IMG/VR virus record: IMGVR_UViG_3300045988_021592
Coordinates: 1 to 5,594 of that record
From: a virus
Strand: one strand, 5' to 3'
DNA length: 5,594 nt
The first letter of the stretch is position 1. Each line of letters begins with the position of its first letter. The translations under genes and the position numbers were made by a program. Below the pieces are notes generated by a model. The model was not told the DNA's origin. It did not search any database and saw only the letters and a list, made by a program, of their open reading frames with translations. Of this stretch, positions 499-5,594 are shown one piece after another.

Positions 499-713
499 TC
501 TTTATCTTTTTTATGTTTAACTTGTGTGTGAATTTCGAACATTTCCGCTACAAATGCGAGAATCGTATCCCATTGTGGTGTATCTCTGTATTGTTCCGCT
601 TCTTCTCTGGTTTTGAAATGCTGTTCCGTAGCTAAGTGTTGCCCTATTGTGATGATAAAATCATTTTGTTCTTCGTTAATAGGTCTGATTTTGAATAATT
701 CATCTCCATTCAT
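495..713 (-). CDS. orfC: small acidic hypothetical protein, 72 aa.
   Basis: ATG at 711..713 overlaps the orfB stop (ATGA at 713..710). Its own TGA at 495..497 overlaps the VP1 ATG at 496..498 (ATGA at 498..495). A canonical AAGGAGG lies 7 nt upstream. The protein is rich in D/E with no hydrophobic segment. I recognise no motif. Confidence 0.65.
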   Translation of the reverse strand: MNGDELFKIRPINEEQNDFIITIGQHLATEQHFKTREEAEQYRDTPQWDTILAFVAEMFEIHTQVKHKKDKE

Positions 714-925
714 TTTTTGTCCTCCTTGTTAAATAAATTAATACTTGTGCTATCTGCACTTACTTTTCCGTCTGTTTTATTTTCTGTACTCATGCCGCTT
801 CCTTTCACATTTTTCTGAATGCTCAGCATGTTAGTACAACTCACCCCTAACCATGTTAGGATAGCTGATAATACTGCAATTGTGATTTCACGAATTAATT
901 TTTTGTACTTTTCTTCTATTTTCAT
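710..925 (-). CDS. orfB: small lipoprotein-like or signal-anchored membrane protein, 71 aa.
   Basis: The N-terminus is MKIEEKYKKLIRE (charged n-region), then ITIAVLSAILTWLGVS (hydrophobic h-region), then Cys30 (codon 836..838) in a lipobox-like L-G-V-S-C context. A 41-residue hydrophilic S/T/N/K-rich tail follows. ATG at 923..925. The stop overlaps the orfC start. Confidence 0.62.
   Translation of the reverse strand: MKIEEKYKKLIREITIAVLSAILTWLGVSCTNMLSIQKNVKGSGMSTENKTDGKVSADSTSINLFNKEDKK
721..727 (-). promoter_or_regulatory. Canonical Shine-Dalgarno-like AAGGAGG, 7 nt upstream of the orfC ATG.
   Basis: Plus-strand cctcctt at 721..727 is minus-strand AAGGAGG, followed by acaaaaa and then ATG (713..711). 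It lies inside the orfB coding sequence (codons K-E-D). I saw no comparable purine-rich SD upstream of the other six genes. Confidence 0.35.
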
Positions 926-933
926 ATCATTTA

Positions 934-1191
934 TTAATAGGTTGTTTCACGTGGAACTTTGTTGTATAAGTTGTATACATTTTTAATTGTTGTACTTAAT
1001 TCTAGCATATTATCCCCTGCATATATATTTTCTAGTTGATTGTAGTCGTAGAGGTAATACCTTTTGCTAAACTCTGTGACTATTCCTACCTCTTTATTTT
1101 TTATATATAAATACCAAAATCTTTCTGTTTTGTCCTTAACCATGTAAGCTAGCCACTTCGGAATAAAGCTGAATTCGTATATTCTTTCCAT
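934..1191 (-). CDS. orfA: hypothetical protein, 85 aa from ATG 1189..1191. The track's 117-aa version starts at GTG 1285..1287.
   Basis: MERIYEFSFIPKWLAYMVKDKTERFWYLYIKNKEVGIVTEFSKRYYLYDYNQLENIYAGDNMLELSTTIKNVYNLYNKVPRETTY. It is Tyr-rich with no recognisable motif. I prefer the ATG start because the GTG extension (1192..1287) overlaps the promoter-like elements and translates to low-complexity sequence. It is the first gene downstream of the non-coding region, in the same strand and spacing as its neighbours. Confidence 0.5.
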   Translation of the reverse strand: MERIYEFSFIPKWLAYMVKDKTERFWYLYIKNKEVGIVTEFSKRYYLYDYNQLENIYAGDNMLELSTTIKNVYNLYNKVPRETTY

Positions 1192-2655: not shown

Positions 2656-3699
2656 TTATTTGGATTTTCCGAATCCGTGCCACTTATTGAATATTGCACT
2701 GATTATTCCTGTTAGTAATTTTCCGTATTTGCCTTCACCTCCTAGCTCATTAATCAGGTCGCTGAATGCCTTATCCTGTTCGAATTGCCACTTCTGTCTG
2801 GCTGTTTCATTTTTGGCTTGCTTTGCTTCCTCTACCATCTTGCCGAATACCGCTATTTTTCCGTTAGCAATCTCGTCGAGAGCATCAGATAGCCTCATTG
2901 CCACCTCCTTGTCATTTTTTGCCTCTTGGTATTCTTTCTGTGATATTCCGTAATCTGCTAACATTCTTTGAAGTTCTTTTTCCTTGAAAATTTCATCAAA
3001 CCCTTTAGTCCATACCGTTTTGCCGTTAACTTCTCCTTGTAACTTAATGCCCTTTCGTAGCTCGTTCAGATAATTGTTGAATTCTATAATCTTGCTTTCT
3101 TCATTAGTCTTATGGATCTGACTAGTTAGGTGTTCTATTCTCTTTTTTGATTCTTCGATTTCTTGTTTGTTCTTTTCAGTTTCTGATTCGACATTTTCGG
3201 TGTCAGTTGTCATCAGTTTAGCTGCTTCTGCGTTGGTTTTCGCTGCTTCTGCTTTAGCCAGTTCTTTCTGAGCCTCCATCTGTTCCCATTGGATGCCCAT
3301 TCCTACACCTGTCGATGTTGGCAGTCCTACTCCTGCTGCACTTCCTCCACCTGCTGCACTTCCACCGCCACCGCCACTACTACCGTATAGTAGTGCTGGA
3401 TTCAGTCCTGCCGCTTCCAGATGTTTTTTTTGATTTTCATAGTTGGTATAATCCCACATTTCCTTGCTGAGTTCTGTGGAATATTTCGCTTGCTCCTTGT
3501 TATATTGAGCCTGTAAGCCCATGTATTCCAGCTGTCTTTGATGCTCCCTTTCTTCGGCTTCTCGCGCTTTTTTCTCTTTTCGCCTGCCGATTCCCATTAG
3601 TGAGCCTAGCCCTCCGATTGCTCCTGATACTAGTCCACCTACACCTCCTGTCAGGCCGCCTAGTGCTGCACTTCCTAGTGCTTCTCCGATTTTTCCCAT
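2656..3699 (-). CDS. VP2: Minor capsid / DNA pilot protein VP2 (functional analogue of phiX174 H), 347 aa.
   Basis: The N-terminus is glycine-zipper-like (GSAALGGLTGGVGGLVSGAIGGLGSLMG). The motif MWDYTNYENQKKHLEAAGLNPALLYG resembles those I recall from gokusho/alpavirus VP2 proteins. There is a poly-Gly/Ala tract (SSGGGGGSAAGGGSAAG), then a long E/K/Q-rich predicted coiled coil, then an amphipathic C-terminus. Its position between the capsid module and rep fits this call. Confidence 0.85.
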   Translation of the reverse strand: MGKIGEALGSAALGGLTGGVGGLVSGAIGGLGSLMGIGRRKEKKAREAEEREHQRQLEYMGLQAQYNKEQAKYSTELSKEMWDYTNYENQKKHLEAAGLNPALLYGSSGGGGGSAAGGGSAAGVGLPTSTGVGMGIQWEQMEAQKELAKAEAAKTNAEAAKLMTTDTENVESETEKNKQEIEESKKRIEHLTSQIHKTNEESKIIEFNNYLNELRKGIKLQGEVNGKTVWTKGFDEIFKEKELQRMLADYGISQKEYQEAKNDKEVAMRLSDALDEIANGKIAVFGKMVEEAKQAKNETARQKWQFEQDKAFSDLINELGGEGKYGKLLTGIISAIFNKWHGFGKSK

Positions 3700-3822: not shown

Positions 3823-4143
3823 TCATTCCCCATTCTGTTGTGGTTCTCCATTCTGTTGTGGTTCTCCATTCTGTTGTGGTTCTTCAGGCTTTTTCATTCC
3901 TTTACTCTTGGCTATTTTACTTGCGTTAGCTAAATCCATAGCCGATTGTGCTATTTCCCATTTGTCTGTCCTGATGTCATATTGAGGTAATACTCCGTCC
4001 TTTTTCTCTGTATAAATTATCGGTGCTCCGTCCGTGATTGGCTCGTTGTTTTCAATTAATTTTGATACTTTGATTTCGATTGATTCGCCCTCGAATGATT
4101 CTACAGACCCCATGAAATTTGGTATATATCTTGTTCTTTTCAT
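3823..4143 (-). CDS. Small 106-aa protein between VP1 and VP2, a possible assembly or scaffold-position protein. Function is uncertain. It has a C-terminal (EPQQNG)x3 repeat.
   Basis: ATG at 4141..4143 lies 10 nt after the VP1 stop. The core ...NNEPITDGAPIIYTEKKDGVLPQYDIRTDKWEIAQSAMDLANASKIAKSK resembles a small protein I recall from gut microviruses, but I cannot verify this. It does not resemble the gokushovirus VP3 scaffold motif as I recall it. The tail is basic and then becomes repetitive and acidic. Confidence 0.75.
   Translation of the reverse strand: MKRTRYIPNFMGSVESFEGESIEIKVSKLIENNEPITDGAPIIYTEKKDGVLPQYDIRTDKWEIAQSAMDLANASKIAKSKGMKKPEEPQQNGEPQQNGEPQQNGE
3826..3879 (-). repeat. In-frame 18-nt tandem repeat in three copies (one mismatch), encoding (EPQQNG)x3 at the extreme C-terminus of the 106-aa protein.
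   Basis: Plus-strand copies are ttccccattctgttgtgg (3826..3843), ttctccattctgttgtgg (3844..3861) and ttctccattctgttgtgg (3862..3879), followed by ttc. Confidence 0.9.
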
Positions 4144-4153
4144 ATTCTATTGA

Positions 4154-5594
4154 TTATAAGTTAGGTATTTGTTTTGCCGACATTACTCTTCTGGCTTCGA
4201 TTCCGAATCCGATTTGTACCCAGAAATTTTGACTTTCTGCTGATGTTTCCGCGAAAATATAATTATACTTACTCGGATCTATATAACTGGTATTGTCTAT
4301 TTCTGTACTTGTAAAATCTCCGTCTTTTGGCTCAAATATTCTGTTCAGTACCATGAATGCTTCATTACCGTTCTCAGCGAATGTTCCGTAAGTTTTGTTG
4401 AAGTTGGTCATGTAGTCTACCCATGCCACCGTCTTGCCGTACGCAACGTTATCTGTTACCCACCCTGCTGCTTTACAGGTTAATAAGTCCTGATATCCTA
4501 TACCGTCTAACGCTGGTTTGTGCAGGTCATTTAGCGTTGTAAAGTATATGTCAAAATCATTTCCTTGGCAATAATCTACGCGAGGTGTAATACTGGCTAT
4601 TCCCATTATGTAACAAGGCTCTGTTACTTTTATATGAAGTTTTCCTCCCTTTTTCGATGTATTGATACCTCTTCCTGCTAATGTTCCTAATGGCTCGTCG
4701 ACTGTTGATGAATTACTTACAACTTCTTGGAATTCTATTTCACTTGACAATCCACCCTCGTACATGGGTGTTTCTGTATGCATATTCCATTCAGATGTGT
4801 ACACTGTTTCGACCCAATCTTGGTAAGTACCTCCGCTCACCGCAATTCTATTTAACATATCATACACTTTCTTTGACAAGTTTAGCTGGTCTATTGTAAA
4901 TTTATCTCCTGCTGTGCTGATTGCTGTTATTGCGCTGATTCCGTTCTCTCCGCTTACCCATTCTGTCTTAATCCAATTGTTGAAAATATCACTTTGGTAT
5001 GTTTTAATTAATAATCCGCATCCTGCTTCTTTCAGATTCCATTTAGTGTTGGTTTCTCCTAGTACGTTACTGAAGTATGAATTTGTTGTTTTGCCTATTT
5101 CAATTTGATTTTTGCCCGCTGCAAGTATTTTTTCTCGTAGTTCGTCTAATTCTGTTAATTTCGCATTAGCTATTGGGCCTTTTCGTGTGTCTGTTGCGAA
5201 TCCTCCTAGTTTTCCGTATACTATTGTACCGTCTGATTTTCTAGTGTATTTTATGTCTTTCCCCGACTGTGTTATGGTAAAATGAGCTTTTAAATAGCTT
5301 GGTTCATAATATTTAGTTTTACCGTTTTTTATATATTGTACTATTGTGTAGTCTACTATGTCTATATTAGCATCTTTTATTAGGAAATATCCTGATGTTA
5401 TTGCTGGTTCTCCTGTTATAGCCGAATATACTATGTTGGTATCGTCTACTTTGTAAGCTCTATCAAATTTGCCTATCCAGTAGTACTGCTCTTCTTGTTT
5501 GTTCGCATAGTAATTCTTGAATATATCTAAGTATGCTAACCATGGAACCGCCTGTCCTCTTACCCTGTTTTTATTTGTCTTCCAGTCCCCTATT
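4154..5594 (-). CDS. VP1: Major capsid protein VP1, C-terminal part. 5540..5594 is the duplicated overlap. The whole protein is 627 aa and ends with TAA at 4154..4156.
   Basis: The track ORF 4154..4879 starts at an in-frame TTG only because no start codon lies upstream in that frame. I translated 4880..5594 in the same frame and found no stop: ...WLAYLDIFKNYYANKQEEQYYWIGKFDRAYKV...GKLGGFATDTRKGPIANAKLTELDELREKILAAGKNQIEIGK...IKTEWVSGENGISAITAISTAGDKFTIDQLN-LSKKVYDMLNR... Codon 5591..5593 equals 52..54, so the frame joins the 1..498 segment. The C-terminus ...FWVQIGFGIEARRVMSAKQIPNL is typical of VP1 proteins. Confidence 0.93.
   Translation of the reverse strand, partial: IGDWKTNKNRVRGQAVPWLAYLDIFKNYYANKQEEQYYWIGKFDRAYKVDDTNIVYSAITGEPAITSGYFLIKDANIDIVDYTIVQYIKNGKTKYYEPSYLKAHFTITQSGKDIKYTRKSDGTIVYGKLGGFATDTRKGPIANAKLTELDELREKILAAGKNQIEIGKTTNSYFSNVLGETNTKWNLKEAGCGLLIKTYQSDIFNNWIKTEWVSGENGISAITAISTAGDKFTIDQLNLSKKVYDMLNRIAVSGGTYQDWVETVYTSEWNMHTETPMYEGGLSSEIEFQEVVSNSSTVDEPLGTLAGRGINTSKKGGKLHIKVTEPCYIMGIASITPRVDYCQGNDFDIYFTTLNDLHKPALDGIGYQDLLTCKAAGWVTDNVAYGKTVAWVDYMTNFNKTYGTFAENGNEAFMVLNRIFEPKDGDFTSTEIDNTSYIDPSKYNYIFAETSAESQNFWVQIGFGIEARRVMSAKQIPNL
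5540..5594. repeat. Terminal overlap, copy 2. Duplicate of 1..55. The unique genome is 1..5539.
   Basis: Base-for-base identity with 1..55. A 55-nt overlap is what a de Bruijn assembler leaves on a circular contig at k=55. Confidence 0.95.

Follow-up and report, generated by a model that had tools for sequence, protein, structure and literature searches.

A small prolipoprotein-like gene of a gut microvirus, with an N-terminal module homologous to amidase-associated smalltalk peptides, as a candidate lysis factor

Colicin lysis or bacteriocin release proteins are tiny lipoproteins with mature parts of about 28–33 amino acids (aa) that cause quasi-lysis and release, and their stable signal peptide is itself functional. 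The phage lipoproteins T5 Llp and Cor exert their effect by means of a folded mature domain, which binds a receptor. For the Alpavirinae-type microviruses, the mechanism of lysis is unassigned; an established mechanism exists only for phiX174 protein E, and in the gut a minority of microviruses have acquired an M15 peptidase (PMC3394797). Our literature searches found no paper on a lipoprotein or a lysis gene in Alpavirinae-type microviruses, and the family described here, with its lipoprotein and glycosylation-motif features, is new with respect to the literature searched. Here, we describe orfB, a gene of 71 codons (713–925, stop codon 710–712, minus strand) in the IMG/VR virus record IMGVR_UViG_3300045988_021592, of which the whole stretch of 5594 nucleotides (nt), hereafter the window, was analysed. 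The gene belongs to a family of small lipoprotein-like genes of microviruses, and the best-placed, still tentative reading is that it encodes a small envelope-targeted prolipoprotein of a Bacteroides microvirus that acts in host lysis.

The orfB product (MKIEEKYKKLIREITIAVLSAILTWLGVSCTNMLSIQKNVKGSGMSTENKTDGKVSADSTSINLFNKEDKK, 71 aa, read from 925 to 713) begins with a charged n-region of 13 residues (MKIEEKYKKLIRE; 887–925; this and the other coordinates of the gene are on the minus strand), which contains four lysines, one arginine and four glutamates, has a net charge of +2, and places Lys2 and Lys6 within the first seven residues. This region is followed by an uncharged stretch of 16 residues that comprises the h-region and the lipobox (I14–S29, ITIAVLSAILTWLGVS; 839–886), and by Cys30 (codon TGT, 836–838), an invariant column of the family and the predicted site of lipidation and cleavage. 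The cysteine stands in the context L-G-V-S-C, the predicted product counted from it is 42 aa long, and the protein fits the PROSITE PS51257-type lipoprotein rule (uncharged h-region, Cys at position 15–35). The signal architecture described in an initial annotation of this DNA, with its K/R-rich n-region, 16-residue core, lipobox-like context of Cys30 and predicted 42-aa mature part, is confirmed throughout. An AlphaFold model computed on a 21-sequence alignment predicts a single helix over residues 2–42, confident only to about residue 30 (mean predicted local distance difference test score, pLDDT, 62), while the remainder, including a low-complexity tail, is predicted to be disordered (pLDDT below 50, residues 38–60 included) and to lack a folded mature domain.

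The gene has a large number of relatives. The first protein search returned 212 homologous protein clusters, nearly all on contigs of 5.4–5.8 kb, and a profile built from diverse members retrieved 1430; an exhaustive profile search covering 1.84 billion representatives yielded eight truly distant family members of 67–90 aa. The proteins P0123, P0125, and P0132 were rejected as repeat-driven false positives, caused for example by SRCR-like ‘AGVSCSNM’ repeats. Family members are labelled ‘hypothetical protein’ in databases or left unannotated, and when orfB or the family was compared with Pfam, PHROGs, PADLOC, and PDB sequences, the only match was smalltalk/DUF6486, for distant members. The block AVLSAILTWLGVSCTNM is invariant across 15 genomes, in which protein identity falls to about 60%, while two to four synonymous codons are used per site. 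In Nei–Gojobori comparisons with seven relatives, the ratio of nonsynonymous to synonymous substitution rates (dN/dS) is 0.03–0.22 for the whole of orfB, 0.00–0.08 for residues 8–33 (the signal block plus Cys), and 0.07–0.44 for the tail. orfB is a genuine gene, subject to strong purifying selection, and, because dN/dS is lower in residues 8–33 than in the tail, the would-be discarded signal peptide is its most constrained part within the clade.

In alignments reaching 35–45% identity, only C30, K38, D58, and S59 are invariant, and T31, N39, S43, and T60 are near-invariant. Distant members show one-residue indels in the interval from the conserved Gly to the Cys (LGVS-C, LGATAC, LGVVSC, LGVNAC, LGITGC), and several of them possess canonical lipoboxes (V-V-S-C, I-T-G-C, L-L-S-C, L-S-A-C). 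At position −1, 215 of the 217 unique members have a small residue (Ser in 186, Gly in 27, and Ala in 2), and the remaining two, with Leu or Thr, probably result from a mis-placed Cys. A conserved Cys preceded by a small residue is the pattern that a site for the lipoprotein-processing pair Lgt/LspA would be expected to display. The initial annotation had proposed that the Cys and the h-region be checked for conservation at the syntenic position in related genomes; the Cys is invariant, and the h-region is invariant within the clade but free to vary in distant members, and the position of the gene shifts. Immediately after the Cys, residues 31–39 (TNMLSIQKN; 809–835) form a motif with the consensus T-x-[ST]-[LM]-[ST]-[IV]-[QS]-K-[NH], in which Lys38 is invariant. 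Acidic residues after the Cys constitute the surface-export signal of Bacteroidota lipoproteins (bioRxiv 10.1101/2023.03.17.533168), and since none of the 217 members has an acidic residue at positions +2 to +6, this signal is absent.

The tail carries a further conserved element, D58-S59-T60 (746–754), which lies 28 residues past the Cys and 13 from the C-terminus and matches the motif D-[ST]-[AILVMT]. In Bacteroidota, D-(S/T)-(A/I/L/V/M/T) is the motif for O-glycosylation, which affects only non-cytoplasmic proteins and for which the motif is sufficient when engineered in (PMC8550257, PMC12871550). The sequon is found in the tail of all 217 unique members, against 35.5 expected from shuffled tails, and in 15 of 15 lineage representatives, against 2.2 expected. 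It is located 25–28 residues past the Cys in most lineages and 20–27 in subgroup C, and 8–13 residues from the C-terminus, except for an additional upstream copy in one subgroup-C member. As a conserved sequon that is glycosylated only on non-cytoplasmic proteins, it indicates that the orfB tail probably reaches the periplasm in a Bacteroidota host; this evidence for a periplasmic tail is indirect but specific. It also points to selection on a phage protein for the O-glycosylation sequon of its host phylum. The lipoprotein-like reading of the initial annotation is thus strengthened by comparison, through the invariance of the Cys in very divergent homologues, the small residue at −1, the canonical lipoboxes of distant members, and the tail sequon.

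The N-terminal part of orfB has relatives outside the viruses. Two distant family members pass the cut-offs of the NCBIfam model NF033879 ‘smalltalk’ and the Pfam model PF20096 (DUF6486), namely P0131 with 44.1 and 46.0 bits and P0133 with 32.1 and 33.7 bits (NF033879 E-values 1.3e-11 and 7e-8, respectively); the two models have 29–31 positions and cover the n-region, h-region, and Cys. An hhalign comparison of the orfB family with six bacterial smalltalk peptides gave a probability of 89.6% and an E-value of 1.9e-6 across 30 columns, which include the aligned Cys. A hidden Markov model (HMM) built from the six bacterial peptides scores orfB at 15.0 bits, a value reached by none of 300 shuffled sequences (best 6.7), while scores of about −1 are obtained with the signal peptides of Lpp, Pal, BT1938, and lambda Rz1. 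Since orfB outscores the shuffles and the other lipoprotein signals stay at background, the similarity is not generic to lipoprotein signals. As far as profile comparison goes, the N-terminal ~30 residues of orfB, comprising the n-region, h-region, and Cys, are shown to be homologous to smalltalk/DUF6486.

Smalltalk peptides of Parabacteroides, Segatella copri, and Bacteroides finegoldii are 31–47 aa long (for example MKKSVWSTIIKVIIAVATAIAGALGIQSCIL and, in part, ...ALTALGVSSCASAL). They share with orfB the K-rich start, the conserved Trp/Ile pattern, the h-region, the ...ALG-x-x-[SA]-C signature with its Cys, and the host phylum, and V-S-S-C is present in 114 of 120 Segatella-type sequences. 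In contrast to orfB, they are chromosomal and multi-copy and end 2–9 residues past the Cys (mostly 4–7), whereas orfB possesses a 41-residue tail with the sequon, has one residue fewer between Gly and Cys, lacks an adjacent amidase gene, and falls below the family cut-offs. All 15 contexts examined show the smalltalk gene flanked on one side by an HU-HIG DNA-binding gene and, directly downstream, by an Amidase_2 gene, which encodes an N-acetylmuramoyl-L-alanine amidase of about 150–175 aa; the three cassette amidases that were translated have no visible N-terminal signal-like sequence. The wider neighbourhoods of this cassette differ, and several copies occur per genome. On Parabacteroides, Segatella, and Bacteroides contigs (L103–L109, L175–L182), it adjoins integrases or polysaccharide-synthesis loci. 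The only literature match to ‘smalltalk protein’ in text searches was a table entry. The orfB candidate is now tied to an unstudied and very common three-gene cassette of Bacteroidales (HU-HIG, smalltalk, and Amidase_2).

The family spans microvirus lineages whose capsid protein VP1 is merely 16–21% identical to that of the window, and the gene occupies different positions in them, upstream of VP1 in the window and in L017, and upstream of Rep in L015, L100/L101, and Dulem virus 245. One homologue, P0128, belongs to a microvirus prophage within a 112-kb bacterial contig (L015), and the gyrA gene flanking this prophage is 100% identical to that of an uncultured Bacteroides sp. and 99% identical to that of a metagenome-assembled genome of B. 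thetaiotaomicron, which fixes the host group as Bacteroides. Species-representative genomes scanned with P0128 gave no match. Prevalence was estimated in 57 IMG/VR contigs chosen by VP1 similarity alone (42–94% VP1 identity): an HMM match was found in 35, and another 12–13 have a gene of a recognisable subgroup (...[GSA]-C-G-S-T-W...), for a total of 47–48 of 57.

Within the window genome, no muralytic domain or other lysis candidate was found by Pfam or PHROG, and orfB gave no match to Pfam Microvir_lysis. Likewise, no M15 peptidase or amidase occurs in the family-positive microvirus contigs (70 loci on about 60 distinct contigs), and none of five microviruses with an M15_3 peptidase has a full-length family member. 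Only the peptidase is present in phiHBP1, a cultured microvirus of B. fragilis (PMC13064476) whose VP1 is 34–39% identical to those of the family-positive L015 and L110. Dulem virus 264 combines the M15_3 peptidase with a smalltalk-like ORF (open reading frame) of 26–37 aa that ends right before a TGT codon and hence lacks the Cys. In this small, non-random sample, the overall distribution of the two genes is as expected if the family gene and the M15 peptidase are alternative solutions to one task. The Dulem virus 264 ORF (MGPKTKEIIRFIITVITSVAAALGIM; L111 4827–4940, PP511383.1) is preceded by AGGAGG, followed by (TTTG)n repeats, and located about 180 nt downstream of the M15_3 peptidase gene; a search of IMG/VR with this peptidase found no relative. 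The remaining three peptidase microviruses each have an unrelated ORF of about 35 aa that contains one hydrophobic segment (L172 3018–3125, L173 5086–5199, L174 5615–5725); these ORFs lie near the peptidase gene in L172 and L173 and are possible holin-like partners.

In the favoured reading, for which lipidation, cleavage, glycosylation, topology, and the lytic role are all inferred, residues 1–29 (n-region, h-region, and the L-G-V-S|C lipobox) would insert into the inner membrane, Cys30 would gain a diacylglyceryl group, and signal peptidase II would cleave the precursor. The disordered tail of about 41 residues would then sit in the periplasm, O-glycosylated at D58-S59-T60, and, because there is no acidic export signal past the Cys, the lipopeptide should remain on the periplasmic side. 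The functional core would be the N-terminal membrane module, common to the smalltalk peptides that accompany Amidase_2, and this module may breach or deregulate the envelope late in infection, either by acting alone as a single-gene lysis factor or by gating a muralytic activity. Four arguments favour lysis: these viruses have no assigned lysis mechanism and this genome offers no alternative candidate; in the host phylum, the N-terminal module is genomically linked to peptidoglycan amidases; the family gene alternates with M15 peptidases in the genomes examined; and most relatives of this 5.5-kb genome keep the gene.

A more specific version of this reading, a two-part lysis principle confined to Bacteroidota, is speculative and in our estimate improbable. 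According to this version, a smalltalk-type lipidated peptide would gate or activate the signal-less Amidase_2 of its HU-HIG/smalltalk/amidase cassette, while Alpavirinae-type microviruses, too small for an enzyme, would encode just an extended, O-glycosylated gate, which might free the amidase of a host cassette or block an envelope pathway that depends on undecaprenyl phosphate. If true, these abundant microviruses of the gut would have their first lysis mechanism, and a glycosylated lipopeptide would for the first time be known as a single-gene lysis factor.

Several observations weigh against an envelope prolipoprotein that acts in lysis. The G-V-S-C of orfB does not fit the strict lipobox [LVI][ASTVI][GAS]C, because of the Gly at −3; Glu is often found at −2 in subgroup C, and Arg replaces Cys in 2 of about 240 sequences, both outside the set of 217. 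The two sequences with Arg, P0042 and P0080, are close relatives of orfB (LGVSRTNM) that differ by a one-base change, which may represent a sequencing error or a natural loss-of-function variant. With the smalltalk model, orfB itself scores 14.9 bits, below the cut-off of 24.7, and has no Pfam match, so its link to smalltalk is transitive, and the uncharacterised cassette amidase could be a cytoplasmic, AmpD-like recycling enzyme. A family member resides in an integrated prophage, and a gene that is constitutively lethal would have to be tightly repressed there. The alternation with the peptidase rests on five peptidase-bearing genomes, a small and non-random sample, and about 10 of the 57 VP1-related contigs have neither an orfB-like gene nor a peptidase. 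The contigs without either gene (L123, L131, L132, L135, and L138–L143) come mostly from one sample set (IMG 33000200xx).

As regards biochemical form, the serious rival, although on balance an unlikely one, is an uncleaved, non-lipidated, single-pass membrane peptide with its N-terminus inside and C-terminus outside, in which the helix I14–I36 would be the effector. Such a peptide would resemble a small holin or a lysis protein of the phiX174 E or LysM type that binds a membrane enzyme, and its Cys would be kept on other grounds, for instance to link dimers by a disulfide or to pack the helix. The hydrophobic stretch can indeed be read as 23 residues (I14–I36), and the predicted helix extends to residue 42; the h-region is invariant in the clade with dN/dS near 0, which is unusual for a cleaved signal peptide; and smalltalk homologues consist essentially of this segment alone, with the homologue in Dulem virus 264 terminating just ahead of the Cys codon. 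One of 21 members also gives a weak match to a holin PHROG (E 7e-4). However, a Cys that stays invariant, with S/G/A at −1, despite indels between Gly and Cys is a signature of Lgt/LspA processing and not of a packing residue, and V/I/L occurs at −3 in the V-S-S-C of smalltalk and in distant members. Thr, Asn, and Ser interrupt residues 31–36, and the sequence of the h-region varies freely in distant homologues.

Exclusion of superinfecting phages, the other function proposed in the initial annotation, would make orfB an outer-membrane lipoprotein akin to T5 Llp or Cor that blocks a phage receptor, protecting lysogens or stopping the loss of progeny on cell debris. The small lipoprotein architecture and the family member inside an integrated Bacteroides prophage are compatible with this, as is the finding that the phage susceptibility of Bacteroides depends on surface structures (PMC13064476). 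We nevertheless consider it rather improbable, given that the signal block is under stronger constraint than the tail, which is predicted to be disordered, that the capsids of the carrier phages are diverse, and that bacterial homologues, which stop so soon after the Cys, have essentially no mature part. With capsids that are 16–21% identical, the phages of this family probably use different receptors. In addition, surface exposure is not predicted, as there is no acidic export signal, the low-complexity mature part has no predicted folded domain, and no PADLOC, PHROG, or Pfam match to exclusion proteins was obtained. Of the two functions first proposed, lysis has thus gained indirect support, while receptor-blocking exclusion has lost it.

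It is likewise doubtful that orfB is an envelope protein with a non-lytic role, such as anchoring replication or assembly to the membrane, modulating outer-membrane vesicles or the envelope-stress response, or serving as a host-fitness ‘moron’ of a prophage. The variable genome position, next to Rep in several lineages, the occurrence in a prophage, and the roughly 10 of 57 relatives that do without the gene would all agree with such a role. On the other hand, accessory genes are rarely kept in very small genomes, this gene is conserved across lineages with highly divergent capsids, and the cell wall is suggested by the association of its N-terminal module with muralytic enzymes. That orfB is a chance ORF or an annotation artefact, as its shortness and the lack of a Pfam or PHROGs match for the window protein itself might suggest, is already refuted by the conservation pattern, with 1430 homologous clusters, dN/dS of 0.03–0.22, and a conserved start and stop plus ATGA coupling to the next gene.

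The genomic setting of orfB differs in part from its first description. The ends of the window are identical (1–55 and 5540–5594), and this repeat implies a circular genome of 5539 nt; it is a complete microvirus genome, in which the minus strand carries every gene. Its closest GenBank records are the unverified faecal microviruses MG945660 (mink, 87.5% identity) and MT135366 (pig, 76.6%), and as part of the best explanation, the virus is most likely an Alpavirinae-type microvirus that infects Bacteroides. The gene encoding VP1 (627 aa) runs from 498 to 1 and then from 5539 to 4154 across the circular junction. The initial annotation had placed orfB immediately upstream of the capsid gene, which is incorrect, since an ORF of 72 aa (495–713, minus) intervenes. 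Translational chaining to the capsid gene holds through this one intermediate gene and not directly: the orfB stop and the start of the 72-aa ORF share an ATGA overlap (710–713, minus) that may permit translational coupling, and a second ATGA joins the stop of the 72-aa ORF to the VP1 start (495–498, minus). The 72-aa ORF has no family match, and its homologues lie directly upstream of VP1 even in relatives without an orfB-like gene (L131–L143); it is therefore more widely conserved than orfB. The late, high-level expression that had been deduced from the placement of orfB is not supported, because the gene lies upstream of Rep in other lineages and expression cannot be read from position.

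Upstream of orfB lies an ORF of 117 aa from a GTG start, or 85 aa from the Met at 1191 (934–1287, minus), whose stop is 8 nt ahead of the orfB start. No Shine–Dalgarno-like sequence precedes orfB, and no transmembrane segment is found in the 72-aa and 117-aa ORFs that flank it. An antisense ORF (819–986, plus strand) was set aside because its conservation merely mirrors that of orfB. The genome further encodes Rep (1716–2699, minus; Pfam REP_ORF2-G2P) and the pilot protein VP2 (2656–3699, minus). VP2, with its N-terminal hydrophobic segment and coiled coil, was considered as a partner for orfB acting as an o-spanin, and this reading was dropped because VP2 matches pilot-protein families. Downstream of VP1, an ORF of 106 aa (3823–4143, minus) contains an 18-nt unit repeated 3.2 times (3826–3883, minus), which encodes (PQQNGE)3 at the C-terminus of the protein; the C-terminus of its counterpart in the pig relative MT135366 differs.

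Between Rep and the 117-aa ORF, about 430 nt (1288–1715) are non-coding and may contain an origin or a regulatory region. This segment holds a G+C-rich island (about 1300–1430), a 20-nt direct repeat (1492 and 1535), and a 19-nt inverted repeat (1551–1569 and 1626–1644). The island, taken as 1295–1435, folds no better than shuffled sequences (z = −0.49), and an Rfam search of the window gave no match. Comparable G+C-rich islands seem to be present in the intergenic DNA of phiHBP1, L172, and L174.

Alpavirinae-type microviruses rank among the most common phages in the mammalian gut, and orfB is the best candidate so far for their lysis gene. The candidate is a conserved, lipoprotein-like protein of 65–90 aa that is present in most sampled relatives and offers mutable features in Cys30, Lys38, and the D-S-T sequon, and the cultured B. 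fragilis phage phiHBP1, with a peptidase in place of the family gene, provides a natural comparator. If the lytic role is true, the target of orfB would be a new ‘protein antibiotic’ target in Bacteroides. The conserved glycosylation sequon of the host phylum and the homology to amidase-associated peptides were unexpected.

Among known systems, T5 Llp and Cor are likewise small phage lipoproteins, but orfB has no sequence match to them, and a tail that is predicted to be disordered and is less constrained than the signal peptide takes the place of their receptor-binding domain. The spanin Rz1 of lambda is also a phage lipoprotein, with an unstructured mature part of about 40 residues that is periplasmic at lysis; unlike Rz1, orfB has no embedded or adjacent inner-membrane spanin, no proline in its tail, and no endolysin in its genome, and the Rz1 signal peptide stays at background in the smalltalk model, whereas orfB does not. 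With phiX174 E, MS2 L, Qbeta A2, and LysM of phage M, orfB shares small size, membrane targeting, and a tiny genome without a holin–endolysin pair, and it would serve at the corresponding stage of the infection cycle. It has no homology to these proteins and occupies its own space, with overlaps of only 4 nt, instead of being embedded out of frame, and it has a lipobox Cys and a probably exported tail where proteins of the phiX174 E type have a cytoplasmic basic domain. The closest functional analogy appears to be that with the colicin lysis or bacteriocin release proteins. These belong to a different phylum and have no sequence similarity to orfB (no match to Pfam Lysis_col at E ≤ 10 for any of 13 family members), and the orfB tail is longer and carries the sequon; the likeness lies in the signal peptide, which is functional in the colicin lysis proteins and is, in orfB, the most constrained block of the protein.

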